From Candidatus Cloacimonadales bacterium (GTDB lineage Bacteria > Cloacimonadota > Cloacimonadia > Cloacimonadales > JAFGVF01), in NCBI GenBank assembly GCA_963677495.2, contig CAXXOU010000004.1:768001-832000 (forward strand): a DNA stretch of 64,000 nucleotides, written 5' to 3'. The translations under genes and the position numbers were made by a program. Shown here piece after piece: positions 2,899 to 20,577 of this stretch. The number at the start of each line of letters is the position of its first letter. Within the stretch, counting starts at the first letter, position 1. The notes below the pieces were generated by a model, which searched no databases, had not been told where the DNA came from, and worked only from the letters and a program-made list of their open reading frames with translations.

Positions 2899-3616
2899 CT
2901 ATACTCTTAAAAATCACTTAATTATTAAAGAGTGGCTGGATAAATACAACATTCTTGCCATATTCGGAGATAACTCAATCCCTTATAGAGAGTTTCTTGC
3001 TAATCCGGGACCTATCCAATGTGGAGACTTTGTTCTGCAACCGTATCAGTTGATAAGATGCAAGCAGACTCATTCTGATCTAGTACATATTATCATATAT
3101 AATGATGCAGGCTCCGGTATTCTAAAGGGTAAAAGGGAGATACCATTAGTCGATGGTTTCATCTGTGATACTCCATATCTTTTCCCATTCGTTGTATCTG
3201 CTGACTGTACGCCAATTCTAATCGTTGCACCTGATGTCAGAGTTATAGCTTGTGTGCATAGTGGTAGAGTAGGAACTGAGAGGAACATACTCGGTAAAAC
3301 ATTGAAGCGGCTTATAACTGAATATAAAGCTAATCCTCAAATACTTGAACTAAAGACAGGTCCGGCAATCTGTAAAGAGCATTATCCGGTAGACAAGACT
3401 ACCTTCGATAACTTTGTTTCGGCTACAGGCATAGAACAAGATTATCCATATCTTGATTTGAGAAAAGTGCAACTGCAACAAGCTTTAGCTACAGGAGTTA
3501 AACTTGAACATATTGAGATTAGTAATACTTGTACTCTTGAGTCTGATAGATGTGCATCATATCGTGAGAATGGTACCCGTGAGCGTCAGATTAATCTAAT
3601 CGGAATCTTAAAGTAG
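2888..3616 (+). CDS. pgeF: YfiH/PgeF family protein (laccase domain / purine nucleoside phosphorylase)
   Basis: QTHS, SADCTPIL, CVHSGR, GPAIC..HYPV, CT...ASYR motifs. Confidence 0.8.
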   Translation: MGNSYTLKNHLIIKEWLDKYNILAIFGDNSIPYREFLANPGPIQCGDFVLQPYQLIRCKQTHSDLVHIIIYNDAGSGILKGKREIPLVDGFICDTPYLFPFVVSADCTPILIVAPDVRVIACVHSGRVGTERNILGKTLKRLITEYKANPQILELKTGPAICKEHYPVDKTTFDNFVSATGIEQDYPYLDLRKVQLQQALATGVKLEHIEISNTCTLESDRCASYRENGTRERQINLIGILK

Positions 3617-4611
3617 ACTCTCCAGAATCTCTTTAGGATTATTTACTGGTATTATTTTAGACAGCTGATATTCTGCCCTTTTAAATCGATACTTTGCCGG
3701 TATTGGAGCTTTGTTAAGTAACTGATAGTTCCCTTCCATAAACTCATAGGAGATGTTTAATCCCTTTCCATTCCAAACAAACACCGGCTTATTAAGCTCA
3801 ATCGCATCCCTTACTGTATAGAGTGTCCCTGAATTGAGAGATGTCTGCACCACGAAAAGAGCGTCACTAATTGCACTCTGCAACCTGTCTCTAAGAATCA
3901 ACCAAGCTCTTTTAACAGAGAAGGAAGGGGGCAACTCAGAGAGAAGATATCCACCATATTCAATAATATCATTTGCAAGCTGCTTGTTCTCTGTCGGATA
4001 GGTTGAAGCATGAAGACCATTACCAATAATCGCTCCTGTATAAGCAGAATTGCAAAGACCATTCTTGAAACATGATATACTCCCGTGATGCCCGGCTGTA
4101 TCACATCCAATAGCCAGCCCACTATGATTCCAGATACCGTTTTCAGCGAAGAGCTGTCCTGCCTGGAAAGCTATTGCTCCCGCATACTTAGGATCTATTA
4201 CTCTACTACCAATAATAGCGACGCCTTTTCCATCACTGCTTTCTCAAAGTTACCTTTCCAACTTAGGAAAAGGGGAGGGATAGGGATCGATTTCATAAAT
4301 GCAGGATATTCATTCGACTCATAAGAGGTGTACCTTATATTGTATCTATCCAGAAGCGCTAACTCGTTCTCTGCAATACGCTCAAGATAGTCATCTTTAA
4401 TATTTACTAACTCGTTTAAGAGTGAGTTCTTTGTATACTCAGGTAAGAGAGACTGACGTTCAGAGACAGTCAGCTGGAATAGATTAATTGAAGAAGTAAC
4501 AGAATCCAAGATGAACTTCACATATTCACCATACTCACTTACGAGCTTCAGCTTATCGCAAAGGGCTGCAATAAGCGTCAGTTTCATGTACTCCTTATGT
4601 GTATAAACCAT
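3608..4611 (-). pseudogene. dprA: DNA-processing protein DprA, frameshifted at ~4226-4229
   Basis: Frame 1 gives YP..MK.IP.PPLFLSWKGN. After a -1 shift the second frame reads GVAIIGSR...SGLAIGCDTAGH...YPTENKQLA...GGYLLSE...RDRLQSAISDALFVVQ..LNSGTLYT, open to 3608. Confidence 0.88.
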
Positions 4612-4641
4612 CAGACCTTACTTTTACTTTGTAACTATGAG

Positions 4642-5766
4642 TTAATCTTTCTTCTCAAACTCCTTAATAAGCGTTTGAACTGCTTGTGTTGAAGTAATAT
4701 CTCCTGACATTAAACGATTTTCAATTTCCGGTAGCATAGCCTTAGTAGTAACATTATTATAGAAGGAATTCAGCAGATAGTCTTCCAGCATGAAATGCAT
4801 CCATTCCAGTTGTTGCTCTTTACGTCTGGACTCGAAAACACCACTCTCAGAGGTCTTATCTCTGAAATCCATTATACTATCCCAGATTTCGTTAACTCCC
4901 GTATTCTTAAGAGCTGAGCATGTCTTGGCAATTGTTTGCCAGCCATTGGTTGCGGGAGCGATATAATGCAGAACCTGATTGAACTCAGACTTAGTCATCT
5001 CAGCTCTTTGCTTGTTATCACCATCTGCTTTGTTAACAACAATCATATCAGCAATCTCAATAATCCCTTTCTTAATGCCTTGGAGCTCATCACCGGCACC
5101 GGCAATCTGTACAACCAGGAAGAAATCAACCATAGAACGTACAGTTACTTCTGATTGTCCTACACCAACAGTTTCGATGATTATAACATCAAACCCGGCA
5201 GCTTCGCAAAGTAAGATACTCTCACGAGTCTTTCTTGTAACTCCACCAAGTGCCCCACTAGATGGGGATGGACGGATAAAGCTCTCTTTCGCTCTTGAAA
5301 GATACTCCATTCTTGTTTTGTCACCAAGAATACTACCTTTACTTCTGGTACTACTGGGATCAACAGCCAGGACAGCCACTTTGTGACCCTTCTCTATCAG
5401 GTTCAAACCAAGTGTTTCAATGAGAGTACTCTTTCCTGCACCCGGCACTCCTGTGATTCCAATACGGATTGATTTACCGCTTTGAGGAAGTATCTTCTTT
5501 ATAAGCTCTTGAGCTTGCTGAATATGTTTGTCGGAATTACTCTCAATTAATGTAATAGCACGTGCTAGCACGATTCTATCCTGATTCATTATCCCATTGT
5601 AATAATCATCAACAGAGAGTTGGTTCCTTCGCACAGTAGGCCTGGTCTTTGTGTTAGAGTTTTTATATGGTAACCCCTCATGAGTGGATTTGACTCCCGG
5701 CATTACCTTAGTTGTGAACTCTTTACCGGCCTTTTCAGGAACCCATTCCGGTCTTTTATCTTTCAT
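4642..5766 (-). CDS. meaB: Methylmalonyl-CoA mutase-associated GTPase MeaB
   Basis: GITGVPGAGKST, AVDPSS..GSILGDKTRM, ETVGVGQSE, GDELQGIKKG, NKAD. Confidence 0.95.
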   Translation of the reverse strand: MKDKRPEWVPEKAGKEFTTKVMPGVKSTHEGLPYKNSNTKTRPTVRRNQLSVDDYYNGIMNQDRIVLARAITLIESNSDKHIQQAQELIKKILPQSGKSIRIGITGVPGAGKSTLIETLGLNLIEKGHKVAVLAVDPSSTRSKGSILGDKTRMEYLSRAKESFIRPSPSSGALGGVTRKTRESILLCEAAGFDVIIIETVGVGQSEVTVRSMVDFFLVVQIAGAGDELQGIKKGIIEIADMIVVNKADGDNKQRAEMTKSEFNQVLHYIAPATNGWQTIAKTCSALKNTGVNEIWDSIMDFRDKTSESGVFESRRKEQQLEWMHFMLEDYLLNSFYNNVTTKAMLPEIENRLMSGDITSTQAVQTLIKEFEKKD

Positions 5767-5979
5767 AGTTTATCCTTGAATGTATTGTATAAATATAGAT
5801 AAATACCTCCCAATTTCTGACAAGGAATTTCTTTCACCTGGTACGCGGACATCCCTGCTTGCACATTCCCCTCTAGCCAGTTAGGGTGACATATCAGGAG
5901 CAGTCACCAGTGCGAGTTTACGAGCTTGGGGAAATGCGGAATGCGGAACTTATACATTTCTTACTTCGGAGTCGCAATA

Positions 5980-6092
5980 AGTTGTTCGCCTATCGGCTTA
6001 CGAGCTCCTCCCACCGGTCGTCGGTTCCCCGAACTCCCGATGGTCGTAATGGTGACTGCTTTAGACTTCATTCATCTCCGCTCAGGGTGACA
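5980..6092. repeat. Partial copy of the palindromic element at 49206-49505
   Basis: AGTTGTTCGCCTATCGGCTTACGAGCTCCTCCC is identical to 49411-49443; ends CTCCGCTCAGGGTGACA as at 49490-49506. Confidence 0.85.
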
Positions 6093-6105
6093 TAGAAATC
6101 CAGTT

Positions 6106-6272
6106 CCATAGGTTGAAACCAATGGCTATTATAAGCTGACTCCTTCAGGGTTTCGAACAATGCATAAACGACATACAGGCAAACATCCTTACCCTAACAG
6201 GGTAACATTATAATAGCCATGGGCTTTAGCCCATGTGAATGTCATCCCAAAAACCCGACCCTAAAGGGGTCG
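6106..6272. repeat. Cluster of REP-like short palindromes
   Basis: Hairpins TTACCCT/AGGGTAA, CATGGGCT/AGCCCATG, CGACCC/GGGTCG; similar hairpins at 15317-15376. Confidence 0.6.
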
Positions 6273-6531
6273 CCCAACATCCTCATAACGCAATTGTTGT
6301 TTCATGCAAATGTTGTATTTAACAAAAATAATATATTTGACAAATAATACATAACATATAAAAGTCGTACATAAACAGAAAAGGAGGAATGCTTCTAACC
6401 CCTTGTTATGTGGGCACATGTTGTCCACCCTCAGTATTTATCATTTAAGGCAACTTTTACACAAAGTTTAATCAGGTCGTCGTTGTATTTACTCTGCGAC
6501 TACCGCCCACCTAGTACAAAGGAGTTTTCAA

Positions 6532-7146
6532 ATGATATATGAAATAACATGTAAGGAAAACGCTTGGATAGTCCCGGAACGGCTCAAACCGATTCTAATC
6601 ACGGAAGGCTTCAGATATGTGTTAGTAGCACTTAATACACCTTCCAAACGCATTAACTTGTTCAACTTCTTCTTTCAAAACCACACCCCACCGAATCTGG
6701 CAATCGATAAAACTAACTATGAGAAGCTCTTAGCTTTTGATAGCACATTAAACCAAAACTACAAACAGATTCAAGAGAAATCACACTTCTTTAAACTCCT
6801 GAATCTACTAAGCAAATATCAACGAAACTACAGATACCAAAGTAAAAGAAACTCTATCGTAGGAATGAAGTTTAACCATCACAGGTATTACCAAATCGTA
6901 TCTGTCTTACAGAAATATCTCTCCGAGTATTCAGGACAAGATGAGTACATTCTCACAATCAATAAATCACTACATAGCCTGATTCTTGCCACAATGTACG
7001 CCTTAAAACAGCAAGCCCCTATGTTCCATTCGCATCTGCAAAAATGCTTCAAACATGATTACTGGGTGCTCTATGAACCGACGTGTGAACCTGATTTCAA
7101 TCTGGTTATTAACTCAGTGCCTGATGGGCAGGGGAGGGGAGAATGA
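6532..7146 (+). CDS. Hypothetical protein, paralogue of 7143-7739
   Basis: 204 aa, RBS AAGGAG; shares N-terminal KPI..TEGF....AL..P.K.I and C-terminal P......K.F.....LY[ED]P with the next gene. Confidence 0.8.
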   Translation: MIYEITCKENAWIVPERLKPILITEGFRYVLVALNTPSKRINLFNFFFQNHTPPNLAIDKTNYEKLLAFDSTLNQNYKQIQEKSHFFKLLNLLSKYQRNYRYQSKRNSIVGMKFNHHRYYQIVSVLQKYLSEYSGQDEYILTINKSLHSLILATMYALKQQAPMFHSHLQKCFKHDYWVLYEPTCEPDFNLVINSVPDGQGRGE

Positions 7147-7739
7147 AATACGAACTTATCATAGGTAATGATCACTGGACTACTTCAGAATCAATAAAAC
7201 CTATCAAAAAGACAGAGGGTTTCTTCATCCTTGAGGAAGCTCTAACCCATCCCAACAAGGTAATTTCCATTACAAAGACTTTCCTTGCATATTACTTCCC
7301 GAGGTTATATGAGATTCCATATTGTGAAGTAACCCCGGGTTTCGGTACTGACTACTTGAATTCATGCTATAAGTTCGCAAAAGAGGAGCGACAAAACAGT
7401 TTATTTCTCTATAAGCAGTATATGCTCTATAGAGAGAAACTCGAACAATCAAGGAGAGTTTTATCAACTGTCGAAGCTGATATCTTTGCTGAACAGGTAG
7501 ATAAGATTGAAGAGATAATCTATAAATCTATAAATATCAATGACAATTTAGACAGCTTCATCAAAGAAGTTAATCATAAAGCATGTTGCTACGTAGTCAC
7601 TGCCCGAAACAAACTAAAGATCAAATCCCCAATCCTGTATGAATATATAATGAAGACATTCACCTTCGGCAGACTTATCCTGTATGACCCGAAGAAATCG
7701 AAAGGAATTGAACTGTCGATTCTCGAAAAGATAAACTAA
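7143..7739 (+). CDS. Hypothetical protein, paralogue of 6532-7146
   Basis: 198 aa, ATGA overlap with the upstream stop, followed by a terminator. Confidence 0.8.
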   Translation: MKYELIIGNDHWTTSESIKPIKKTEGFFILEEALTHPNKVISITKTFLAYYFPRLYEIPYCEVTPGFGTDYLNSCYKFAKEERQNSLFLYKQYMLYREKLEQSRRVLSTVEADIFAEQVDKIEEIIYKSININDNLDSFIKEVNHKACCYVVTARNKLKIKSPILYEYIMKTFTFGRLILYDPKKSKGIELSILEKIN

Positions 7740-7740
7740 C

Positions 7741-7765
7741 AAAAGCCCGAGAAATCGGGCTTTTT
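7741..7765. terminator. Bidirectional intrinsic terminator
   Basis: AAAAGCCCGA-GAAA-TCGGGCTTTTT between convergent genes. Confidence 0.85.
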
Positions 7766-7767
7766 AC

Positions 7768-7818
7768 AATGCTAAATGGTAAATGCTAAATGTCTGCACT
7801 TCGTGCAATTATGAATTA
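7768..7818. repeat. Degenerate 7-bp tandem repeat (AATGCTA type) with TGCAC/GTGCA hairpin
   Basis: AATGCTA AATGGTA AATGCTA AATGTC TGCACTTCGTGCA. Confidence 0.7.
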
Positions 7819-7833
7819 AAACACAAAAAACTA

Positions 7834-8964
7834 CTAAATTCGTTCTATAATTTTCATTTTATCTTTATCGAACTGGATGTACTCGAATGTTAAACCATTT
7901 AGATACTTGTTAAGATGATTTATATATTTCTTATCCTCAGCTGATGCCTGTACATTAGAAACTAAAACAAGCTTTTTTGTTTCTTGCACATTGGGATATA
8001 GACTATACTCTATTAATTGCCCAAGACTTTCTCTTATGCACATTCTAAGTTTTGGTAATACTTTGATTTCGTAAAAAGTCAGTTCATTGCTTTTATTAGG
8101 ATCTCTACTGATCAAGTCTATTCTTCTACCATTCGTATAACCTTCAGCTTCAACATTATTAATGCCATACTTTTTTTGCAGAAATGTTAAAAACGCATTT
8201 TGCAAGGCTATGTGATCATAACTGATTGTTATTGTTCTTCTTAATCCCGTTCGAGTTTTTTTAGGTATAGGTATTTCTTCTGTTGTTCCGTTAAAACCAA
8301 ATTTGTAGCGTTGAATTTGTTTTGTTTTTAGAAAAACGTTGACTTTTGGTGCAATCTTATCAAAGAGAATGTATCTATAGTTATTGAATAAGTTAAGTGG
8401 CAGTTTTATTGGTTCATCAAAAATAGTTATTGATTTCATAAAATTAAATCTAACATTGAGCAATTGCTTAGGCTTATTTTTATTTTTGGTTAAATAACTT
8501 CTACCTTTAGGGTTCTTAATATCACTCAAATCTTCCTTCATTTCCTCGAACCAATTTTTAGTTTTAAAAGTATTTAAGGCAGTCTTTGCAGTTATTTCGT
8601 CAATGACTTCTAAGCCACTAATTTCACAGATCAGTATAAATCTCTTTTCCCATTTGTTATATGTATAGAGAAGTAGATCGAATATTTCACCTACATGTAA
8701 ATTATGATTCTTTTCGGTATTAAATGCTTCAATAAAGCTATACTTAAACAATTCTCCATTCTCCTCAATAAGCATTCTCTTGTTTAACAACCACTCTTCT
8801 AGTCCAAAACCCCATTCATTTTCGAAATTTTTCTTTTTTACTTTTAGACCAGTTTCTTTATTAACAATAGAATAGATACCATCACTTTTCCCTTCTAATC
8901 CAGATGGTCTTTCCCAACCATTGTCATTCCAACAGATTCTTGCTAATCTTAACGGATTACCCAT
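7834..8964 (-). CDS. Hypothetical protein with C-terminal PD-(D/E)xK nuclease-like domain
   Basis: H..LQ...VEAE....RRIDL...TFYEIK.....IRESLGQLIEY; AT-rich. Confidence 0.7.
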   Translation of the reverse strand: MGNPLRLARICWNDNGWERPSGLEGKSDGIYSIVNKETGLKVKKKNFENEWGFGLEEWLLNKRMLIEENGELFKYSFIEAFNTEKNHNLHVGEIFDLLLYTYNKWEKRFILICEISGLEVIDEITAKTALNTFKTKNWFEEMKEDLSDIKNPKGRSYLTKNKNKPKQLLNVRFNFMKSITIFDEPIKLPLNLFNNYRYILFDKIAPKVNVFLKTKQIQRYKFGFNGTTEEIPIPKKTRTGLRRTITISYDHIALQNAFLTFLQKKYGINNVEAEGYTNGRRIDLISRDPNKSNELTFYEIKVLPKLRMCIRESLGQLIEYSLYPNVQETKKLVLVSNVQASAEDKKYINHLNKYLNGLTFEYIQFDKDKMKIIERI

Positions 8965-9000
8965 ACATATACTCCTTTTATATTGATTTCATTATTCACC

Positions 9001-9110
9001 ATCTATCATTCAGCATTTAGCATTGAGCTTTAGCTCAGCCATTGCACCACAGGTGCACTCATTGTGCGCCAGCACAGCCATTTAGCATTGCACCAACGGT
9101 GCAGACATTT
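9001..9110. repeat. 7-bp tandem repeats plus 28-bp and 31-bp dispersed repeats
   Basis: TAGCATT-type units; AGCATTGAGCTTTAGCTCAGCCATTGCA (9019-9046, also 10261-10288); ATTTAGCATTGCACCAACGGTGCAGACATTT (9080-9110). Confidence 0.85.
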
Positions 9111-9114
9111 ATTA

Positions 9115-9480
9115 TTAAGCATTATTAAGGTTTTTCTTAGTAGTAATAAGTATCTTCGTAATTATATTAAGCAACTCTTTTGCACTCTCAATTATTGAGT
9201 TGAACTGTTTATCATCTATGTAGTCTGTTTCATGGAGCAAACGGAGCCAGTAGATGGTCTCACGACACTCTTTTTGAGCTATACATAACTTGGAATAGAA
9301 ATCCTTCTTGGTTTGACCACCTACTGCTTCCTCTGCATTTGCACCAATTGAAGTACCATATCTTAAGACTTGTAGAGATAGAACTCTCTCATGTTTCTTC
9401 TCTTTTAAATACTTGCTCAAGTTAACTATCCGTACTGCGAATGCAAACGATTTTTCTAATACTACATTTTCTTTTGCCAT
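9115..9480 (-). CDS. Four helix bundle protein (23S rRNA IVP / bAvd-like)
   Basis: KSFAFAVRIV...QVLRYGTSIGANAEEA..GQTKKDF..KL.IA.KE..ET.YWLRLL. Confidence 0.93.
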   Translation of the reverse strand: MAKENVVLEKSFAFAVRIVNLSKYLKEKKHERVLSLQVLRYGTSIGANAEEAVGGQTKKDFYSKLCIAQKECRETIYWLRLLHETDYIDDKQFNSIIESAKELLNIITKILITTKKNLNNA

Positions 9481-9521
9481 GATTAATAAATGAATATTGA
9501 GTTCATTATGTCAAGTAAAAA

Positions 9522-9578
9522 CCATTCAGCATTTATCATTTAGCATTTAGCATTGCACCAACGGTGCACACATTTGCA
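9522..9578. repeat. 7-bp repeats plus 31-bp repeat copy
   Basis: ATTTAGCATTGCACCAACGGTGCACACATTT at 9545-9575. Confidence 0.85.
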
Positions 9579-10031
9579 TTACAAAATCCTATTGTCCAGC
9601 TGCTCTCCTCGTTTCACTGGGGCAATCACACCATTCTGAATCGCTTCCCAGACGCTTTTAATTGGCAAATCCATATCTACTACATCCTGTGGGGTTATCG
9701 TTTTCAAATCCAGACTCGGGATTGCTTGTTTGAGGGTGAATAGCATTCTCATCAATGCTGTATATCCAGATATTCTTCCACCATAACCTATTGTTGCAAG
9801 GTTATACCTATCTGCATAATCCTTCAGATCATCCATATAACCTTCACTAACACTCTTCCAGAAGACACCGATATTCTTACCGGAACTTCCAATCTCACGA
9901 TTATGTGCTGTCTTACGAGGTATCACATAATCTCGTGTCCAAACTGCACCTGATTTCTTCTCGATACAGTAAACCAACTCATCCAGTTTACCGGATAACC
10001 CGATAAACCCTTTCATGAATTTTGCTTTCAT
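9579..10031 (-). CDS. Hypothetical protein, paralogue of 14563-15024
   Basis: Start moved to ATG 10031 (RBS GGGAGG); MKAKFMKGFIGLSGKLDELVY...RDYVIPRKT. Confidence 0.8.
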   Translation of the reverse strand: MKAKFMKGFIGLSGKLDELVYCIEKKSGAVWTRDYVIPRKTAHNREIGSSGKNIGVFWKSVSEGYMDDLKDYADRYNLATIGYGGRISGYTALMRMLFTLKQAIPSLDLKTITPQDVVDMDLPIKSVWEAIQNGVIAPVKRGEQLDNRIL

Positions 10032-10089
10032 CTCTAATTTCCTCCCTTTAGTCCTACGATTTATCAGCCGTAGCTTCAGTGAAGTAGGA

Positions 10090-10326
10090 TTATTCATCTT
10101 GCATTTTAAATTTAGCATTAAGCATTTAGCATTGCACCAACGGTGCACACATTTAGCATTATTCATCTTGCATTCATACTACATATGTACTTCAAACCCC
10201 AATTCTATATTCCATTTCCAATTTTTTTAATAATAATTTAGCATTAAGCATTAAGAATTAAGCATTGAGCTTTAGCTCAGCCATTGCATCAACGGTGCAC
10301 ACATTTAGCATTCATAATTCAGCATT
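10090..10326. repeat. 7-bp repeats plus 31-bp and 28-bp repeat copies
   Basis: 31-bp copy at 10124-10154, variant at 10282-10306; AAGCATT/TAGCATT runs. Confidence 0.85.
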
Positions 10327-10342
10327 CCCCCTCCACTGCCAT

Positions 10343-10470
10343 CCCATTCAATAATCATACGACAGAAAACATTAAGTTATCCACAACTTGTGACTAACTT
10401 GATGCTTTGATCAAGAGAGTATCAAGAGAGTATCAGGTGTGTATCAAGTGTCTATCAAGAATTGAATGGG
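10343..10470. repeat. 128-bp inverted-repeat-bounded element with five 11-bp repeats
   Basis: IR CCCATTCAAT/ATTGAATGGG; ATCA(A/G)G units at 10410, 10421, 10432, 10443, 10454; includes TTATCCACA at 10377. Confidence 0.75.
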
Positions 10471-10627
10471 GGAAAGGTGATGGAAATAGGATTTATAATG
10501 CCTTGCTATAGTTATTGCTATAGTTATGTAAAACTAATAAACTTTTTTCTAATAAGATATTGACAATTATAATCTGATGAATGCAATGTAATTAATATTT
10601 GCAAGAGCAAGCAAAGGAGAGTTTTAC

Positions 10628-11944
10628 TTGAAAGCAAACACAAAATTAGGAGCTGTAAAAAAATTTTATCTATTAGATTACTTTTATGTTCTATTAGCAA
10701 GTATAAAAATGTATAGCATAGAATCAGAAGTATTTGAGGAGTTTAAGAAATTAAAGCAAGAATTCAATTTAGGTGAATCTAAATACAAAAAAATTCAAAC
10801 AGAATCTGAGAAACTTTCTGAGCCTCAGTTAAAAAGATATAAATATACATTTTATCAAGTTGTTGCAGAAGCAATAGAATACAAGCTAATCAAGGTTTCA
10901 GAAATAAAAATCTATTCAGGTGATGAGCTAATATACTTTAGATATAATGACTTTGAACTCACAAAAGATGGAATTACAGCAATTGAAATTTATAATAGTA
11001 AAGGCTCATATGAGTTTAACAGATTCATTTTTAATAGAATGGAAGATACCTATGGTGCATTTAGATACTTTCTAGATTTTTGTTATTCAAACAACAAATC
11101 GAAAAATGGATTATTAATCTTACCAATTTACTCTCCATTAAAGCTAAATATCAACAAAAAAGATATTGTAACAACGATCGATTTATTAAGGTATCTGGAT
11201 TTCTTACAAGAACAACTTGAAGATGATATTAAACAATATCTTGGACACAATATTGATCTGGAGAAATATAAACATGAGCTGATTGAGTCATTAGCATCAA
11301 TATCACTAATACCTAGGGATGTTAATAAGAAATATAAATCAAGCGATTATAATAAGATTATTAGCAGAATTAGAAGATATTGGCTTAATTTTTTTTTGAA
11401 GAAAATATACAAATTTGAATATTCGCTTACATCTTTTGAGACTTGGGTTTATAGAGCAAAGCAAATCGGAATTATTCATGCTACTGAGTTTTTCCCAGGT
11501 TTCTCTGGAAAGATTATATATCCGATATCAATACTATCAAGGAGCAAGAGCCCAAATGATTTCGTAAATATAATGAACTATGAGGATGATGATAACCTTT
11601 ACCTACATCATCCAAATATTGATAAACGAAATAATGTTGAGGACTTTGTAGACGTTCTACATGAAACATATTTGGAACAAAGAAATAGAGTAAAAAGCTA
11701 TTTCATAAATCTTTTGGATCTTAGAGAAGTTGTTTGTTACAAGCAAAGAATATCTGAAAGGATTTTTGATGAGTATTTAACAAAAGTTTATCAACTGGAT
11801 TTGGATGGACAGTTAAGGTCAATTAGTATTTCTCTTGAAGGAGATAAATTACCTAAAGAAACTGATGCAATGTACTTAAAAAGGGTACCCATACGGATTC
11901 AAAACAAAGAAAAAAATATCATAGCCATAGATTTTAGGAGATAA
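10628..11944 (+). CDS. Hypothetical protein (possible winged-helix domains), first gene of the low-GC operon
   Basis: 438 aa, TTG start with RBS AAGGAG, TTGACA at 10560; no recognised catalytic motif. Confidence 0.8.
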   Translation: MKANTKLGAVKKFYLLDYFYVLLASIKMYSIESEVFEEFKKLKQEFNLGESKYKKIQTESEKLSEPQLKRYKYTFYQVVAEAIEYKLIKVSEIKIYSGDELIYFRYNDFELTKDGITAIEIYNSKGSYEFNRFIFNRMEDTYGAFRYFLDFCYSNNKSKNGLLILPIYSPLKLNINKKDIVTTIDLLRYLDFLQEQLEDDIKQYLGHNIDLEKYKHELIESLASISLIPRDVNKKYKSSDYNKIISRIRRYWLNFFLKKIYKFEYSLTSFETWVYRAKQIGIIHATEFFPGFSGKIIYPISILSRSKSPNDFVNIMNYEDDDNLYLHHPNIDKRNNVEDFVDVLHETYLEQRNRVKSYFINLLDLREVVCYKQRISERIFDEYLTKVYQLDLDGQLRSISISLEGDKLPKETDAMYLKRVPIRIQNKEKNIIAIDFRR

Positions 11945-11945
11945 T

Positions 11946-13358
11946 ATGAGTAAAATAAATAAATATTTACAGAGACCTGAAGATGTAAATCCGGAAGTCA
12001 CAGCTTCAAGATACGAAAGGTTTTATTTAAAAGAAAATCCTTTCCCAGCTCATCCTGCGGTTCAAAAAGATTCTTCAGATTATAGAATAAATGGTAGAAT
12101 TTTTGAAGAATCAATTAGATCAAATGAACTAAAAAAAATAACTGAAAATTTTCTTAAAGTCTCACAAGCAGACTTGAATCATTTAAGATTAGGTTTCCTT
12201 AGTGATACATCATATATTGGCCGAGGAAATGGGAAAACAGCCTTTCTTGTAAATCTTGTTGATAAAATAAACGAACAATTTTGTTTAGATATATCTGACA
12301 AAAAAAACAAATGCTTTGCTGTATATTATTCACCAAAACCTGGAGGAGCGACAAAAACATTTTCACAGTTTGTTAAAGATATTTTCTATGCAATCATAGA
12401 GCAAGATTTTATAAATCTTAGCTTAGCTACTATTTATTTAAACATATTATACAAGCAAAACAAGGATATTGATTTAAGTAGCATAGTAGACGATAAGAGT
12501 TTAATTAAGTGCATGTTAGATAAAGAATGGTATGAAACAGTGGGGTGTTCTTATGAAAGTGTTTTTAAAGAGCTCTTACAGCAAAACTGGTTTCAAAACT
12601 TACCTTTTATTGATGCAAGTGATTATCTCTTTTTCTCTCATTATTCAATGATTAATCAAGATTCGTTTCTTAACTATTTTAATGAATCTGACATTGAATG
12701 CAGAATTGAGTTTTTCTTTAGTAGTCTTATTGATTTGTTCTTAAACTCAAATTTTAATGGAGTTTACATCTTTGTTGATGATTTTGAAAAGATATTGAAC
12801 TTTCAGAATGCAAAACAAATGAGAAATTTTGCTTTTGAGTTAAGATCGAGTGTCTTTGATGGATTATGTAAAAATGCTAGAATTGGCTTTTTTAACTTCT
12901 TTTTTGTAATTCATGCAGGCGTTCATAGATTGATAAAGGATGCTTGGAATTCATCTGGAATGAATAATCGTGTTCCACTTACCGAGAATACACAGGATCG
13001 CCATGTGATATCGTTTGAAAAATTAACAGCAGAGCATACAAAGTCCTTGTTAAAAAAGTATTTAAGTGAGTATAGAACTGAAGATAAACCTGAACATCCA
13101 TTATTCCCTTTCTTAGAATCTTCAATAGAGATCATTGGTAAAAGATCTGAGATGAATGCTTCAAAGATTCTAAGAATGTCACATAATTTGATAGAGAACG
13201 CAGTAATGGATGATAAAGTCGTTCAAATTGATGAAGATTTCATTAATGATTTTATAAATAAATCTAATTTTGAGGAAATAGAAGATAAAATACCATCAAT
13301 TGACAATATACAATCTGTTGACTTACAAGCAAAGGTATCTAAAAGAAATGGCAAGTAG
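11946..13358 (+). CDS. P-loop (AAA+-like) ATPase
   Basis: N-terminal FYLKENPFP, Walker A GRGNGKT, Walker B VYIFVDDFE. Confidence 0.82.
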   Translation: MSKINKYLQRPEDVNPEVTASRYERFYLKENPFPAHPAVQKDSSDYRINGRIFEESIRSNELKKITENFLKVSQADLNHLRLGFLSDTSYIGRGNGKTAFLVNLVDKINEQFCLDISDKKNKCFAVYYSPKPGGATKTFSQFVKDIFYAIIEQDFINLSLATIYLNILYKQNKDIDLSSIVDDKSLIKCMLDKEWYETVGCSYESVFKELLQQNWFQNLPFIDASDYLFFSHYSMINQDSFLNYFNESDIECRIEFFFSSLIDLFLNSNFNGVYIFVDDFEKILNFQNAKQMRNFAFELRSSVFDGLCKNARIGFFNFFFVIHAGVHRLIKDAWNSSGMNNRVPLTENTQDRHVISFEKLTAEHTKSLLKKYLSEYRTEDKPEHPLFPFLESSIEIIGKRSEMNASKILRMSHNLIENAVMDDKVVQIDEDFINDFINKSNFEEIEDKIPSIDNIQSVDLQAKVSKRNGK

Positions 13359-13698
13359 ATGTGCAACAAAACAAGAAGTTATTGATCTGCTTAATTGTAT
13401 AATAAACCAAGATTGTGAACTAGCAGAAAAAAATAAGCTGATAATTTACCAAATCAAATATTATGAAATTGAGTTAGTATTTCTAAGCTACTTTATTTGT
13501 TTGTATTTAGAAAATAATTCCAGTGTCAATATTGTCGAAAAGATACTAAAATTGTTAAATGAATACTATCTACGTGTTCAATGGTTCGATATAAACTATA
13601 TTGAAGCTCTTTACTCAAGGTTCGGTGATAAAGATTTGTGCATGGATGATAAACTGATCCAAACTCAAGAAAGAATCAATAATCATGACTACTATTAA
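13348..13698 (+). CDS. Small hypothetical protein
   Basis: ATG 13348 overlaps the ATPase stop; its own stop overlaps the PIN gene start. Confidence 0.6.
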   Translation: MASRCATKQEVIDLLNCIINQDCELAEKNKLIIYQIKYYEIELVFLSYFICLYLENNSSVNIVEKILKLLNEYYLRVQWFDINYIEALYSRFGDKDLCMDDKLIQTQERINNHDYY

Positions 13699-14113
13699 AA
13701 GATATGTTCTTGATACTACTTCAGTGATTTCTTATTTTAACAACATATTTTCAGTTAAGTCACAAATATCAAGTACAGCTCAAAAAATTATTGAAAGAGG
13801 GCTCAATGATGATGAGCATGTTGTTTTAATAGTTCCTAGTCTTTGCTTCATTGAAATCTATGATAAGTTCTGCACTGATGAAGAAAACTTAGCAAAATAT
13901 AGATATGAAGTTTTAACTCCTTTAAGGGGAAAGAATCAAATAGAAATTAGAGAGATTAATGAAGAAACACTTAAAAATTATAGTTTAATTGATGATGATA
14001 TTGTCAATTTAGAAAGTAAGGATAAGGTGTTTTTAGCAACTGCAATTGAAATGGATGCTATATTGATTACATCTGATAGAAAAATTATTAAGTATGCACA
14101 AAAAAAGGTTTAG
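13685..14113 (+). CDS. PIN domain ribonuclease
   Basis: YVLDTTSVI, VPSLCFIEI, D.VFLATAIE.DA.LITSD acidic PIN pattern. Confidence 0.88.
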   Translation: MTTIKRYVLDTTSVISYFNNIFSVKSQISSTAQKIIERGLNDDEHVVLIVPSLCFIEIYDKFCTDEENLAKYRYEVLTPLRGKNQIEIREINEETLKNYSLIDDDIVNLESKDKVFLATAIEMDAILITSDRKIIKYAQKKV

Positions 14114-14253
14114 ACATTGCAGTAATGAGATAATATCTAATAAACATCAATATTTAAGTATGAAATCCATGTCACAAGACTTAAATATCCAAAATAAAAA
14201 AGCAATTTGAAATACAGAAAGGGCATTTGGATGACAATAGAAGAGTGAAGAGA

Positions 14254-14341
14254 ATGAAAAATGCAAAATGCAAAATGAAAGATGAAGAATTAAAAATGCT
14301 GAATGCTTAATTCATAATTCCTAATTAGTAATTCGTAATTC
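14254..14341. repeat. Degenerate 7-bp tandem repeats
   Basis: AATGCAA, AATGAAA, AATGCTG units, then TTCATAA TTCCTAA TTAGTAA TTCGTAA. Confidence 0.75.
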
Positions 14342-14562
14342 TATTGGTTTCTCCTGATAGTTTCCTTTTGATGCACATAAAACAAGTTAATTGTTTTTAT
14401 CTTTACCAGTATTATACCTTAGTGCACGAGGGAAGTTGCAGTAACCCCTACTGCAAAACAACTAATCAATCTCAGTACCTCAGAAGATTGAGTGTGTGGA
14501 AGTAGCTAACCCTCATCAGTCTTCTCCACAAGGTTATGAGAGCATTCCAAAGGAGAACAACT

Positions 14563-15024
14563 ATGAAAGTCACAATGATGAAACCATTCCGATCATTCAG
14601 TGGTATAATGGATGAATTGGTTTATGCCGGTTACAACGAAGGGTACATCTGCTACAGCAGAGATTATGTGATACCCAGAGAAACAACTAACAATGAGAAA
14701 GTCGGCTCAATAGCCACAAACCTTGGTGTCGTTTATGATAGCTTCGATAGCGGATGGGTTGATGATTTGAAGACCTATACACATCGATTCATATCTGATT
14801 GTCAGACTAAAAGAGACCGCCACCCTGGCTTCTACAGCCTCTATGGCAAGATGTGGTGGAAGGTAGTTAAAGATGATCCCACAATTGACTTGAGAACAGT
14901 AACATTCGCAGATATTCAACTCCTTGATATTGGAATCCAAACAGTGAAAGATGCCATTGATAATGGCTTCCTTCCAAAGATCAAGAAATACGATGATTTA
15001 ACTAATACCTATAATGGAGCGTAG
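14563..15024 (+). CDS. Hypothetical protein, paralogue of 9579-10031
   Basis: ATG 14563 with RBS AAGGAG; SG.MDELVY...RDYVIPRET...DDLK.Y...DL.T.T..D...V..AI.NG. Confidence 0.82.
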   Translation: MKVTMMKPFRSFSGIMDELVYAGYNEGYICYSRDYVIPRETTNNEKVGSIATNLGVVYDSFDSGWVDDLKTYTHRFISDCQTKRDRHPGFYSLYGKMWWKVVKDDPTIDLRTVTFADIQLLDIGIQTVKDAIDNGFLPKIKKYDDLTNTYNGA

Positions 15025-15027
15025 GTG

Positions 15028-15054
15028 AAAAGGCCCTCGTAGAGGGCTTTTTTT
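15028..15054 (+). terminator. Intrinsic terminator
   Basis: GCCCTC-GTA-GAGGGC followed by T7. Confidence 0.85.
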
Positions 15055-15600
15055 AGCTAATAGCTTATAGCCTATAGCCTATAGCAGAATGCAAGATGCA
15101 AAATTAAAAATGAAAAATGCAGGATGCTAAATGAAAGATGAAAGATGAAAGATGAAAGATGAAAGATGCTTCATGCTAACCACGAATGGGGATCTTATTA
15201 TTTTCGTGTCTTTGGTGTGGTTCGTGGTTAAAAATCTGTTACTGTCGCGTGAAGTTCTCCACTATGAGTCCAACGTTAGCTTGCTATGACTTCTATGGAG
15301 AGATAGGGGGAAAGTTCGACCCCGTTGGGGTCGTGGTTTATTTGTGTTTGCAGACCCCACGCTTACGCATGGGGCTATTCAGGTTCAGCTAACTCCGTAG
15401 CTGATATATAAAAGAAAATGAAAGGTAGAAATGCGATAATGCTTAATGCTTAATGCTAAATGCTTAATGCTTAATGCTTAATGCTCAATGCAAAACGCGT
15501 TTCAGATGCAAAATGCAAAATTAATAATGCAAAATGCAGGATGCTAAATGAAAGATGCTTCATGCTAACCACTAAAGGCACTAAAAGCACGAAAGGGGAT
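15055..15600. repeat. Repeat-dense spacer: 7-bp and 9-bp tandem repeats, REP-like palindromes, local duplication
   Basis: (GAAAGAT)5 at 15133-15167; AATGCTT-type run 15438-15490; 9-mers 15203-15229 and 15570-15596; CGACCCC/GGGGTCG at 15317. Confidence 0.8.
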
Positions 15601-15854
15601 TGGGATATTTTTTGCTTCGGGTTTCCCATTCCTGCCCCATGCTTCACCACGGTGCAGGTCTGATAATATTGAATTAAACAAAACAGTTATAATCGATTCT
15701 TAATCCCTATAAATTATGTTGATAGCGATGGTTAGGGATAAACAGCGAAAAGCATTACAAATTATTAAGACAATGGTATAGAAATAGATATAAAAAAAGG
15801 TTGACTGTCACTACCGAAACAATGAAATTGGTAAAAAAAGAATAGGGGTTCAAT

Positions 15855-16982
15855 ATGCGTTTTTCAATAGAACTTAATCAGCTTGCTCAGCATATTCCGC
15901 ATCTAGCAGGCCTAATCCCCGGCAAAAATACAATGCCTATCCTTGAAAACTTTCTGATTGAAGCAGATGAAGAAACTAACGGTGTAGTTTTCACTGTTTC
16001 AAATCTATACATGACAGTTATTTGTCAGTTTGAAGCTAAAGTCTTAGAGAGTGGTAGAATTGCTATCCCTGCACGTGTGTTTGTTGATATGATCAGCAAC
16101 CTTGGTGACTTGGATAATCCACAGCTCAGTATCTCAAAAGATGATGAAACTGTGAATATCTTATGTGCAGGTAACAACTATCAGTTCCTTTCAGCAGATC
16201 CCAGTGAGTATCCGCTTGTGCCTAACCGCTCATTGAACAATGCATTCTCTGTTGATGCAATGGTATTCAATAAGATGGTTAACAAGACTATCTTCTCAGT
16301 GTCTCAAGAGAAATCACGTATACTCTTTACAGGTGTGTTCTGGAAGATTATTGCAGACAAACAGATTATGGCTTCCTCTGATGGTAAGAGAATTTCTGAG
16401 ATTCAGATTAACTCTAATACTGAGATTGAAGCAGAAATGGCGCATATTTTACCAATTAAATGCCTTAACTTCATGCAGAAGATAATCAAAGAAGATGATA
16501 TCGATCTTCAGGTTGTGTTCCAGGCTGCCAGAGTCATGTTTGCATATTCAAACTATACAGTTTATTCCAACATTATCGAAGGTGAATATCCTGATTACGG
16601 AAAAGTGTTCCCGGCAGAAGTAAGCTCAACACTTGAGATCAATAATGACAACTTCAAGCGTTCACTTAAGAGACTTGCTTTCTTAGCACCGGATGATAAC
16701 CATAAAGTTAAAATGAACATCACAGCTGATAATCTTAAGCTTAGTACAATGAGACCTGATATCGGTGAAGCTGAGATTCTTGTTGAGGATTTCACTTACA
16801 CAGGTGATCCAATGAAAATCTCATGTAATGCCAGATTCTTAAGATCTATCCTTGATGTGATTGATACAGAGAGTGTGAAGCTTGAGTTTGCAGGTAACAC
16901 TAAACCTTTCATAATTACAAACACTGAAGAGCCGGAAAATCAGGAATCAAGATACCTGTTGATGCCTCTACGGACCAGATAA
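15855..16982 (+). CDS. dnaN: DNA polymerase III beta sliding clamp
   Basis: MPILENFLIEA, ASSDGKRI, GEYPDY.KVFP, YLLMPLR; followed by recF. Confidence 0.95.
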   Translation: MRFSIELNQLAQHIPHLAGLIPGKNTMPILENFLIEADEETNGVVFTVSNLYMTVICQFEAKVLESGRIAIPARVFVDMISNLGDLDNPQLSISKDDETVNILCAGNNYQFLSADPSEYPLVPNRSLNNAFSVDAMVFNKMVNKTIFSVSQEKSRILFTGVFWKIIADKQIMASSDGKRISEIQINSNTEIEAEMAHILPIKCLNFMQKIIKEDDIDLQVVFQAARVMFAYSNYTVYSNIIEGEYPDYGKVFPAEVSSTLEINNDNFKRSLKRLAFLAPDDNHKVKMNITADNLKLSTMRPDIGEAEILVEDFTYTGDPMKISCNARFLRSILDVIDTESVKLEFAGNTKPFIITNTEEPENQESRYLLMPLRTR

Positions 16983-16983
16983 A

Positions 16984-18060
16984 TTGAAGGTTACAAGTCT
17001 TAGTCTTGTAAATTTTAGGAATTTCTCAAAGCTTAGTGTTGATTTTGAACCAAAGGGTTGCCTGATAACAGGTGACAATGGCAGTGGTAAGTCAAACCTG
17101 CTTGAAGCAATAGCTTACTGTGCCTTTGGTAAGTCGGTAAGAAATTTCTCGGACAATGACTTAGTGAACTTCGAATCTCAATTCTTTTATAATAAAACAG
17201 GCTTCTCCGCTGATGGAGAAGCCCTGTCTTTTGAAATAAGCTTTCAGCAAAACTCGAAAGCTATTAAACTGAATAATCGTCCGATTAGTAAGTTAAGCGA
17301 ACTTTACAAACATGTGAAGGTAATCTATTTCTCTCCGGATGATATATCTCTAATCAATAATACTCCCCGACTAAGAAGGAACTTTATTGATACAAGCTGC
17401 TCTCAGAATGATTGGGAGTATCTGCACCTTTTGAGAGAGTATCATAAAATAGTACAACAACGAAACGCGTTGCTTAAGACAGAGTTTGACGATAAGTATA
17501 AGAAAAGTTGGGACCTAAAGCTATACTCAACTGCAAATGAGATAATCAAAAGAAGAATTGAGTATTGCAAACAACTGGAAGAATTGAGTCGTGAGATCTG
17601 TGAGAACCTAACTGATAGAAAAGAGCAGATAACACTTAGCTATAAGAGTACACTTCCCATTAACATGAAACAGAATGAGTTAATGGAATTTCTGTATGAG
17701 AAAGAGAAAAGAGAAGTGGAGCAAGGTCACACGCTGTTTGGACCGCATTTGGACGATATAGTGATTAAGCTTGATGACAGACTTGCGAAGGAGTTTGCCT
17801 CTCAAGGGCAGAAACGTTCTATAGTTATATCGATGAAATTGGCTCAAGCTAAGCTCGTAAGACAGAGCTCTAAGACACTACCGATACTTATGTTTGATGA
17901 TATACTCTCTGAACTGGATGAATCGAGAACTGAAAGAATAATTCGACTTGTCGGAACAGAACATCAGGTTTTTATTGCAACACCAAATGCTAAAGAATAT
18001 GAAGCATTTGAACTGCCTAAAATAGTTTTAAAGGATGGAAAACTAATTGAAACTGAGTAA
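16984..18060 (+). CDS. recF: DNA replication/repair protein RecF
   Basis: NFRNF, GDNGSGKSNLLEAI, GPHLDD, ASQGQKR, MFDDILSELD. Confidence 0.95.
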   Translation: MKVTSLSLVNFRNFSKLSVDFEPKGCLITGDNGSGKSNLLEAIAYCAFGKSVRNFSDNDLVNFESQFFYNKTGFSADGEALSFEISFQQNSKAIKLNNRPISKLSELYKHVKVIYFSPDDISLINNTPRLRRNFIDTSCSQNDWEYLHLLREYHKIVQQRNALLKTEFDDKYKKSWDLKLYSTANEIIKRRIEYCKQLEELSREICENLTDRKEQITLSYKSTLPINMKQNELMEFLYEKEKREVEQGHTLFGPHLDDIVIKLDDRLAKEFASQGQKRSIVISMKLAQAKLVRQSSKTLPILMFDDILSELDESRTERIIRLVGTEHQVFIATPNAKEYEAFELPKIVLKDGKLIETE

Positions 18061-19285
18061 GAATGTCCTGGGTTGGATGTTATACGATTTTGCTAACTCA
18101 GCATTTACAACGATAATTGTGACAGTTGTATATAGTAGATACTTCGTGGATGCTGTTGTTGGAGACACTAACCTTGGTAGTGCCTTGTGGGGAAGAGCTA
18201 TAGCTATCTCTATGTTCTTTGTTGCTATCTCAGCACCGGTATTTGGTGCAATTGCTGATTACTCACGTAGTAAGAAAAAGTTCCTCTTTATCAATACATA
18301 TCTCTGTATAATATTCACCTCACTGTTGTTCTATGTAAGGGAAGGTGATATTTTTACCGGAATGCTGTTCTTTATATTAGCGAACATTGGTTATCATAGT
18401 GCTAATGTATTCTATAACTCGTTCCTACCCGATATTGCCAGCGAAAAAGATATAGGCAGAATTTCCGGAATGGGGTGGGCTTTAGGTTATATAGGTGGAT
18501 TGGTTGCCTTAATCTTCTCATTGATTTTAGTTAATAATAGACTCATAAACTGGGTGTTCCCCTCTGTAGCCCTTTACTTCCTTATCTTTTCAGCTTTTGC
18601 CTTCTTCTGGGTTAAGGAGTTGCGTAGACCAAGTAAACGTTCTAACTACTTCAAGATTGCCGTAAACAGAATAAAACAGTCATTCCTGAGCATTAGGAAG
18701 TTCAAGCAACTCACAAGGTATCTTATTAGCTACTTCGTGTATAATGACGGCATTACGACGGTTATAGCCTTCACTTCTATCTATGGTATGGAAAGATTCA
18801 ATATGAATACAGAGGATATAATCAGGTTATTTATCTTTGCACAGTTCACATCTGTTGCGGGAGCCTGGTTGTTCGGAGTTCTTGCTGATAAAATGAACCT
18901 TAAAATTACAATTAATATATCTCTGGTAATCTGGATAGCTGTAGTAATCTGGGCTTTTTTCTGTCAGAGTGGAAGCGAATTCTTGTATGTTGTGCTGCTT
19001 GCCGGTATTGCAATAGGTTCATCACAAGCGAATAGCCGAACCCTCTTATCAAGACTGACACCTAATGATAAACAGGCGGAGTTCTTTGGTTTCTATTCTA
19101 TAGCCGGAAGAATATCTTCAATAGTGGGACCGCTTTTGTTTGGTGAAATGAAGCGGATAACCGGAGACATAAGATACTCAATTCTGTCTGTACTTGTTTT
19201 TTTTGTTGCAGGAATTATCCTTCTGCAAAGTGTGAATGTTGAAGAGGGTATTTCTGTGGCAAAGGCTTGGGAAGGAGATAATTAA
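18047..19285 (+). CDS. MFS transporter (UMF1/Atg22-like)
   Basis: W.LYDFANSAF, GRISG.GWALGY.GG, AEFFGFY; about 12 hydrophobic segments. Confidence 0.88.
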   Translation: MKLSKNVLGWMLYDFANSAFTTIIVTVVYSRYFVDAVVGDTNLGSALWGRAIAISMFFVAISAPVFGAIADYSRSKKKFLFINTYLCIIFTSLLFYVREGDIFTGMLFFILANIGYHSANVFYNSFLPDIASEKDIGRISGMGWALGYIGGLVALIFSLILVNNRLINWVFPSVALYFLIFSAFAFFWVKELRRPSKRSNYFKIAVNRIKQSFLSIRKFKQLTRYLISYFVYNDGITTVIAFTSIYGMERFNMNTEDIIRLFIFAQFTSVAGAWLFGVLADKMNLKITINISLVIWIAVVIWAFFCQSGSEFLYVVLLAGIAIGSSQANSRTLLSRLTPNDKQAEFFGFYSIAGRISSIVGPLLFGEMKRITGDIRYSILSVLVFFVAGIILLQSVNVEEGISVAKAWEGDN

Positions 19286-20571
19286 TGAAAAAATATTATA
19301 TAGAGACCTATGGATGTCAGATGAATATATCTGACAGTGAGTTGGTGGCTACAATATTAACAGAAGCTGGATTTGAAGAAGCTGAATCGATTGAAGATGC
19401 TGATGTTATTATGTTTAATACCTGTTCTGTAAGACAGCATGCAGAAGATAGAGTTAAGGGTAGAATCTCTAACGAACAATCACGTAAACGAACAAAGAAA
19501 GACCTGCTTATAGGTGTTATGGGCTGTATGGCACAAAGACTTCAAAATCAATTGATAGATATGAAAATAGGTGTTGATTTTGTGGTTGGTGTTGATCAAT
19601 ATCATGAGATACCCAAGATTATCGCAGAGAAAGTAAAAATAACTGCTGATTTTAACTTCGATGAGGTTTATCATAACGTGTATCCTACCCGTAAAGGTAA
19701 GTTTAATGCATTTGTCACTATCATGCGTGGATGTAACAATTTCTGCACATATTGTATTGTTCCATACGTTAGAGGAAGAGAACGTTCAAGACCCTTTGAT
19801 GAGATTATGCATGAGGTAGAAGAAGCCGGGAAAAAGGGGTTCAAGGATATCACACTCCTTGGTCAGAACGTAAATTCATATGCATATCAGGGAATCAAGT
19901 TTCATGAGCTTATGAAAGAAGTAGCTCAAATCGATACTATTAAACGATTAAGATTCGTGACTTCTCATCCAAAGGACTTATCTGATGATTTGATAAGAGT
20001 GATGGCAGAAGAGGATAAAATATGCAAGCATCTGCATCTACCACTGCAGAGTGGAGATAACGAGATTCTGAAACAGATGAATAGAGGGTATACAGCAGAG
20101 CACTATTATGGAATCATCGAAAAACTAAGAGATGCTATGCCAAATATTGGTTTAACTACCGATATAATTGTTGGTTTCCCGGGTGAGACACATGAGCAAT
20201 ATATGAAGACATATAAACTTATGGAGAAGATAAGGTATGAGTATGCTTTCATGTATAAGTACTCTCCAAGGACCGGGACTAAAGCTGCAGAGTTTACAAA
20301 CCAGGTTGAGGAAGCTGTTCGTCTCGAACGGTTAAAAGAAATTATTGAGATGCAACGGGAAATTACTTTACAAAAATATAGAGAGCAGATTGGTTCTATT
20401 AAAGAAGTTTATGTAGAGAATATAAGTAAGAAGTCATCTGAAGAAGTGTCAGGTAAGACAGAGGACTTCAAGATTGCTGTATTTAAAGGGGATAAATCTC
20501 TTATTGGTAAATTTGTAGATGTCAGAATAACAGATGCAACAAGTGGAACTTTAATTGGAGAAAAGGTTTAG
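19285..20571 (+). CDS. miaB: tRNA-2-methylthio-N6-isopentenyladenosine synthase MiaB
   Basis: TYGCQMN, NTCSVR, radical SAM GCNNFCTYCIVP, C-terminal TRAM domain. Confidence 0.95.
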   Translation: MKKYYIETYGCQMNISDSELVATILTEAGFEEAESIEDADVIMFNTCSVRQHAEDRVKGRISNEQSRKRTKKDLLIGVMGCMAQRLQNQLIDMKIGVDFVVGVDQYHEIPKIIAEKVKITADFNFDEVYHNVYPTRKGKFNAFVTIMRGCNNFCTYCIVPYVRGRERSRPFDEIMHEVEEAGKKGFKDITLLGQNVNSYAYQGIKFHELMKEVAQIDTIKRLRFVTSHPKDLSDDLIRVMAEEDKICKHLHLPLQSGDNEILKQMNRGYTAEHYYGIIEKLRDAMPNIGLTTDIIVGFPGETHEQYMKTYKLMEKIRYEYAFMYKYSPRTGTKAAEFTNQVEEAVRLERLKEIIEMQREITLQKYREQIGSIKEVYVENISKKSSEEVSGKTEDFKIAVFKGDKSLIGKFVDVRITDATSGTLIGEKV

Positions 20572-20577
20572 GATATC

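Follow-up and report, generated by a model that had tools for sequence, protein, structure and literature searches.

A conserved cassette of a predicted wHTH reader, an AAA+ ATPase and a PIN nuclease in Candidatus Cloacimonadales: a candidate anti-phage system

Introduction

Operons in which a triple winged helix-turn-helix (wHTH) protein stands beside an Orc/Cdc6 ATPase were predicted to be counter-invader systems (PMC10853773). In the portion of that article available to us, such cores are placed in SspBC and in predicted operons with a restriction endonuclease (REase), HerA or KAP, and PIN domains are mentioned only as an accessory of Dnd loci. Here we describe a cassette of four genes, called A to D, located in a 64,000-nucleotide stretch of a Candidatus Cloacimonadales bacterium (the window; assembly GCA_963677495.2, contig CAXXOU010000004.1, positions 768,001 to 832,000) and coding for a putative wHTH reader, a putative ATPase, a small partner and a putative PIN nuclease (Table 1). 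The cassette, which is apparently unnamed and probably anti-phage, joins a known sensing core, the triple wHTH with Orc/Cdc6, to a new PIN effector arm. Its homologues were assigned to three clades (I, II and III).

The operons that Rakesh, Aravind and Krishnan predicted in 2024, in which Orc/Cdc6 is paired with a DndG-like triple wHTH, have the same two-gene sensing core, are mobile and carry no modification enzyme, but in the text at hand their partners are ASCH-REase, HerA/FtsK and KAP NTPase, not a PIN with a small helical protein (PMC10853773). BREX shares with the cassette, at the fold level, a BrxA-like multi-HTH reader and an ORC/Cdc6-clade ATPase; BrxA is the best structural match of A, with a modest Z, B adjoins the BrxC_BrxD clusters in ESM space, and B, like BrxD as portrayed in the accessible part of 10.1101/2025.10.09.681413 (PMC12839542), is a stand-alone ATPase without extra DNA-binding domains. 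In that same part a PIN appears only as a backup effector. The cassette nevertheless lacks PglZ, the PglX/BrxX methylase, BrxB, BrxL and a helicase, and membership of BREX was rejected because the core genes PglZ, BrxC and BrxX/PglX are absent from the recurring families and PADLOC gave no BREX match. Likewise, membership of MANTIS/Gao_RL (DUF499), which in the available excerpt consists of a methylase, a co-regulator, a DUF499 ATPase and a helicase-nuclease (10.64898/2026.09.23.753747), was rejected, as none of these components is in the cassette.

SspABCD differs in its effector, which in the cassette is a PIN with a small partner, and also in that neither PAPS reductase (SspD) nor cysteine desulfurase was found among the recurring neighbours or the Pfam labels of the flanks. 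By PADLOC, A is not SspB and B, of about 465-470 aa, is not SspC; membership of Ssp was rejected on these grounds (no PAPS reductase or sulfur donor among the recurring genes, no SspB/SspC match). PrrC/RloC and PARIS pair ABC-type ATPases with HEPN or TOPRIM nucleases, whereas in the cassette the ATPase is of the AAA+ kind, the wHTH reader is a protein of its own and the nuclease is a PIN. As in our reading of the cassette, they have an RNase under the control of an ATPase that aborts infection, and links to restriction (PMC12707154).

The first-pass annotation of the window could not match the gene order to a named system, and neither could we: with PADLOC 2.0 neither the window proteins nor their homologues of clades I and II had a real match, apart from a scatter of hits with E between 0.001 and 0.01, and none of 17 clade I B homologues matched its BREX or SspB/SspC models, while clade III B had a weak BrxD match (E 4.6e-4). 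No description of the four-gene set came up in the openly available literature, large machine-learning catalogues apart; it may be listed in the supplements of PMC10853773 and PMC12839542, and the accessible parts of 10.64898/2026.10.19.760177 and PMC12458937 hold no matching system.

Results and Discussion

All 52 clade I loci in which A is followed by 2.1 kb or more have the order A-B-C-D, including one (L054) in which A is 5'-truncated. An alignment search of GTDB had yielded 64 clade I loci, where a single-sequence locus search had given none; nine that end at contig edges and three decayed remnants (L062, L063 and L064) were set aside. Clade II, reached by profile search, comprised 80 metagenome loci, and in all of the 55 that could be assessed the same order was present, distant as they are from clade I; in ten of these B starts inside the end of A, which was counted as the same order. 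By profile comparison the link between clades I and II is firm for A (2.5e-34), B (1.3e-68) and D (2.7e-12) and weak for C (3.6e-4). Only A, B, C and D recur, no other family being present in more than 6/65 loci, and thus the cassette is without a methylase of its own. The loci belong to at least 15 phylum-level groups, and the pairwise distances of the four proteins correlate (rho 0.60-0.75, 48 loci), for which shared ancestry alone suffices.

Among the remnants, L063 is short and L064 is frameshifted throughout. In L062 (L062:77-406) B, C and the first PIN catalytic residues have been lost by an in-frame deletion, which joins A, cut at its middle, to the final third of D, and a similarity of A to D seen in clustering was discarded as an artefact of this natural deletion.

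As the first-pass annotation had noted, the four genes lie on the + strand and are coupled, A and B being separated by 1 bp, B and C overlapping by 11 bp and C and D by 14 bp. The open reading frame (ORF) tool offered an alternative start of C, an upstream TTG at 13300; alignments of the homologues begin at 13348. The low GC content had also been seen correctly. It is 28.5% for the cassette (27.3-29.4% per gene) against 37.0% for the genome, which makes the cassette the most AT-rich 3.5-kb stretch of the genome, with 1 of 6791 segments of this size being so low. The figure of about 42% GC given for gltX was too high, bases 1-1000 (most of gltX) having 38.5%. Cassette GC is below that of the flanks in 43/43 clade I and 24/28 clade II loci. 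Four runs of one sample, which is probably the one that the genome came from, gave a single contig over 10443-14877 without any difference, and promoter and terminator scans of the cassette were at chance level.

A is predicted to be a triple winged-helix DNA reader of the BrxA/FokI kind. With its AlphaFold2 (AF2) model (pLDDT 91.8) the top VIA match was BrxA (7zge; Z 8.9, root-mean-square deviation (rmsd) 4.3, 165 aligned); the recognition domains of PaqCI, FokI and BpuJI followed at Z 7.5-7.9, and PadR/MarR-type domains were also matched, below BrxA. The closest named ESM clusters, FokI/DpdG/BpuJI_N at 0.77-0.80, give a lead only. A is basic (median isoelectric point 9.0) and B, C and D are acidic, in clades I and II alike. 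Across phyla A has a mean pairwise identity of 50% (48 sequences). At E <= 0.001 there were 269 homologues of A and 259 of B; for the best 120 of each the identity to the protein of the window is 41-54%, and almost none of them carries a Pfam label. Profile searches of the PDB with A, B and C returned nothing useful.

B is a predicted ORC/Cdc6-clade AAA+ ATPase resembling BrxD, BrxC and TnsC. Its AF2 model (pLDDT 90.8), in which a helical insert is present, was matched to Cdc6 (Z 17.7, rmsd 3.1, 263 aligned), ORC2 (Z 17.6), TnsC (Z 14.9) and BrxC (Z 12.0), and the ESM neighbours of B bear the label PF10923 BrxC_BrxD, at 0.95-0.96. An AAA+ core with lid, Walker A and B, sensor I and arginine finger was found, the roles of the sensor and the finger being assigned from position; G92-K97, D278, E281, H323 and R342 are invariant, and the motifs LKENPF, GRGNGKT and VDDFE, picked out by the first reading, are indeed present and nearly or fully invariant among 120 homologues. 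B lacks the C-terminal winged helix of ORC/Cdc6, and its model ends in a short helical tail with a conserved DLxxK motif. In clade I the Walker B motif has DD and the first P-loop Gly is replaced by Ile; clades II and III have DE in Walker B. Since B also matches TnsC and MuB at Z 13-15, and repeats flank the cassette in the window, it could be proposed that A and B serve a mobile element, A as a target selector of the TnsD kind and B as a loader of the TnsC kind. We regard this as highly improbable, as no transposase or integrase recurs at the loci, where the limit of 6/65 holds for every neighbour family, and the repeats belong to other elements.

That the last gene codes for a PIN domain, as first annotated, was confirmed by a Pfam PIN score of 25.4 bits against a cut-off of 23.6. 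D10, E57, D113 and D131 are invariant in 49 D sequences, and the clade II consensus has acidic residues at matching positions. We therefore treat D as a predicted VapC-like PIN nuclease and putative effector with a predicted RNase activity, VapC proteins being RNases. Another arrangement with a reader, an AAA+ ring and a nuclease but no methylase is modification-dependent restriction of the McrBC type, in which A, whose reader fold resembles FokI and BpuJI, would read modified phage DNA, B would move along it and C and D would cut it. This seems distinctly unlikely, for D is a minimal PIN of VapC size, and its PIN neighbours in the PDB are VapC proteins only, at weak E of 0.05 and 0.72.

C evolves fast, with no invariant residues and a mean pairwise identity of 24%. 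It is likely an inhibitor or adaptor of D, to judge from its place before the PIN gene, and it might be a catalytically dead PIN copy, which we consider the less probable case, at about one chance in three. Clade I C matched PIN profiles in register, but weakly and hardly better than the controls (E 0.006 and 0.005; the best of 43 controls reached 0.0097). Longer fused forms of C were looked for without success, a weak piece of evidence. As in VapBC, a small gene overlaps and precedes the PIN gene; unlike VapBC, C has no VapB match and is always accompanied by A and B.

The association with defence genes, which was to be expected of an anti-phage system and was looked for at the homologous loci, was borne out. 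In 59 clade I loci (193 genes listed, five dropped and two added) 34/190 nearest neighbours bore a restriction, defence or toxin-antitoxin Pfam label, compared with 9/136 distal genes at these loci (p 0.003); for restriction-modification labels alone the counts were 15/190 and 2/136 (p 0.01). Such a restriction, defence or toxin-antitoxin label was borne by a nearest gene at 24/59 loci, and a restriction-modification gene was among the nearest neighbours at 13/59. In clade II, five of six hand-picked long neighbours matched HmaA/B/C, BrxC or type IIG models.

Searches for A in INPHARED phages, for A, B and a clade II A in PLSDB (72,556 plasmids), for the B and clade III patterns in IMG/VR, and with PHROGs profiles all gave no match. 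Within a sample of 61 genomes of the order, a full-length B match was found in two, the window's own genome (G000) and G012, and one further match was weak and distant; none of 11 other genomes of the same family had a full-length one. The nearest relative of B, and the identical match place of L042 and G012, a genome of the same order, make a Cloacimonadota host probable. A locus of a same-order genome (L147:445-2851) codes for a distant BrxD-like ATPase (E 9e-7 to the B profile) followed by a different downstream gene, and is possibly another system on the same core. No clean empty site was found: three congeners have dnaN in common but diverge upstream, and in G001 meaB is some 88 kb distant.

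Could the cassette serve the cell in another way, as a toxin-antitoxin, addiction or DNA-damage dormancy module unrelated to phage, with C the antitoxin and A and B a sensor or regulator of the state of the DNA? C and D resemble an antitoxin-toxin pair, many loci are found amid housekeeping genes, and the B tree is grouped by phylum. At each of the 107 assessable loci, however, C and D come with A and B; restriction genes are over-represented among the neighbours, and the cassette was absent from the plasmids searched, where addiction modules are common. We judge such a module to be rather unlikely.

In clade III the A-like domain also occurs in larger proteins. It was found at the C-terminus of a type I HsdS (P0336), of type IIG/DrmMI-like enzymes (P0337, P0342 and L154), of a type ISP-like methylase (P0356) and of a PNP-NACHT-TPR protein (P0326), and as a weak match on a IIG tail (P0339); seven further proteins are unfused or fragments. 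The genomic context of this clade comes from one locus, L154, where downstream of the fusion come first a B-like ATPase (E 2.7e-31) and then a protein of 333 aa that ends in a PIN (E 3.8e-6) and whose N-terminal extension is of the size of C and matches it weakly (E 0.06 and 0.04). L154 is a restriction locus that incorporates the cassette. Over 5552-18728 it carries the 1963-aa type IIG-A fusion, the ATPase, the long PIN, a LexA-like regulator (recognized by eye) and a PLD-SNF2 helicase. Searches for clade III in 401 Chloroflexota genomes, done twice on samples that overlap, and in 401 genomes from a different phylum turned up a single new full match.

These fusions, which occur in clade III and not in clades I or II, together with the restriction-modification genes near 13/59 clade I loci, raise the possibility of a guard, in which A docks on or reads a resident restriction-modification complex and B fires the PIN RNase once a phage inhibitor disables that complex; PrrC and PARIS are described as such guardians in the part of PMC12707154 available. 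Against this, most clade I loci have no restriction-modification neighbour, and none was seen among the ORFs of 4000-22000 in the window. The context of clade III is that single locus. With one fusion partner being the PNP-NACHT-TPR protein and seven proteins unfused or in fragments, the clade III fusion may merely reflect adjacency to defence genes. A guard is in our opinion unlikely, if well worth bearing in mind.

We consider it probable, with good confidence, that the cassette is a defence system. Our best account of how it works is held tentatively and has slightly less than an even chance of being right: A to D would form one unit, an abortive-infection system triggered by invading DNA, with the PIN RNase as its output. 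A would bind a feature of the invading DNA, B would assemble with ATP on the A-bound DNA, and this assembly would release D from its likely inhibitor C; the freed D would then cut host RNA, and the infected cell would stall. By analogy with VapC, the RNA target might be tRNA or rRNA. The physical contacts, the trigger, the RNA target and protection against phage are what we infer in this scheme. Since A is about 50% identical across phyla and the cassette has no methylase, self marking by sequence is unlikely; a conserved DNA structure, a modification or a mimic is a more likely trigger than an unmethylated sequence motif.

Several observations count against this abortive-infection scheme. Foldseek with the model of A gave no match at E <= 0.001, and the best VIA Z of A, 8.9, is only just above the level of common arrangements, so that the case for DNA binding is made by the winged-helix class and the charge. 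ATP turnover by clade I B may be low because of the Ile for Gly in the P-loop and the DD instead of DE in Walker B; STAND switches also have a DD Walker B. The role of C rests on position, one probable fusion and a marginal profile match, and clade II C did not match the PIN profiles (E 0.07 and 0.25). In the neighbour test the labels were judged from Pfam names and the loci, coming from related genomes, are not independent, and at 35/59 clade I loci the nearest genes have no defence label. Finally, a quick tree of B (48 rows) largely follows the phyla (15 changes, where 14 is the minimum; a few close cross-phylum pairs), which speaks for long residence with occasional jumps and not for very rapid spread.

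Two paralogous genes of a multicopy family of about 150 aa flank the cassette in the window (Table 1). In the genome tblastn gave 23 hits for this unannotated family, at 26-76% identity, and Pfam, NCBIfam and PHROGs hold nothing that really matches it; the TIGR02436 gene near the left one has at least four more copies. Around both, at about 7760-10330 and 14250-15580, are degenerate 7-mer arrays, and since 17 five-kb bins of the genome carry them (by a rough pattern) they are not unique insertion ends. The cassette had been described as part of a repeat-bounded island; we abandoned this view, as the arrays belong to multicopy elements found elsewhere in the genome too. The 64-kb window has no tRNA, and no integrase was seen among the ORFs of 4000-22000.

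Table 1. Positions of the cassette genes, the domains of A and the flanking genes
Feature	Position	Strand	Remarks
Gene A	10628-11944	+	438 aa; TTG start; GGAG upstream of start
Gene B	11946-13358	+	470 aa; AAA+ ATPase (predicted)
Gene C	13348-13698	+	116 aa; small acidic partner
Gene D	13685-14113	+	142 aa; VapC-like PIN (predicted)
wHTH domain of A	residues about 7-126		AF2 model
Middle domain of A	residues 127-330		AF2 model
wHTH domain of A	residues 331-438		AF2 model
TIGR02436 four-helix-bundle gene	9115-9480	-	amid degenerate 7-mer tandem arrays
Left flank gene, ~150-aa multicopy family	9582-10034	-	tblastn against own genome; not part of the system
Right flank gene, inverted paralogue of the left (36% identical)	14563-15024	+	tblastn; not part of the system

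Further to the left, 7834-8964 (-) is a single-copy gene of 30% GC for a 376-aa protein with an unrecognised N-terminal domain and, by eye, what we take to be a PD-(D/E)XK-like motif at the C-terminus; it is possibly a stand-alone restriction nuclease. It has no real match in Pfam, PADLOC, NCBIfam, PDB or PHROGs, and the suggestion that this adjoining nuclease belongs with the cassette, as a fifth part, was rejected, the gene not being among the recurring neighbour families. At 6532-7739 (+) are two tandem paralogues of about 200 aa; their family, likewise unannotated, has a few further members elsewhere in the genome. At 5880-6240 the summed contig depth is high, loose ends are numerous and there is an inverted repeat of 45 nt (6107-6235), which marks a multicopy palindromic repeat element. 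A dprA-like gene at 3608-4611 (-) looks split, probably by an assembly error, as three of four runs have an extra base at 4229. To the right of the cassette, no dnaA was seen among the ORFs directly upstream of dnaN-recF (dnaN at 15855), where the three congeners differ.

Conclusions

The first proposal, that of a candidate novel anti-phage system, is upheld by a gene order kept across phyla, AT-rich composition, patchy occurrence, intact catalytic motifs, fold classes from models, defence-rich neighbours, the clade III fusions and the lack of a corresponding PADLOC system. The cassette thereby adds a candidate defence system, present in at least 15 phylum-level groups, that is outside the PADLOC 2.0 models. 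A pair of triple wHTH and Orc/Cdc6 drives several defence systems (SspBC, BREX and the predicted capture systems), and in these the recognition and the relay of the signal are unsettled. As the 3.5-kb cassette is minimal, lacks modification enzymes and has just one output, which is easy to assay, the trigger and the hand-over are directly testable in it, and in the fusion of A to restriction enzymes nature provides a test case for the origin of guard systems.

A bolder possibility, on balance doubtful though not far-fetched, is that of an old and widespread immune system in which an ORC/TnsC-like loader acts as the alarm, the wHTH reader, which can be attached to restriction enzymes, nucleates the assembly of B, and the tail of B pulls the PIN off its dead PIN twin C. 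If true, such a system would have escaped notice until now through its near absence from model hosts and plasmids, and it would link the surveillance of DNA or of restriction enzymes to the destruction of RNA in one portable module.

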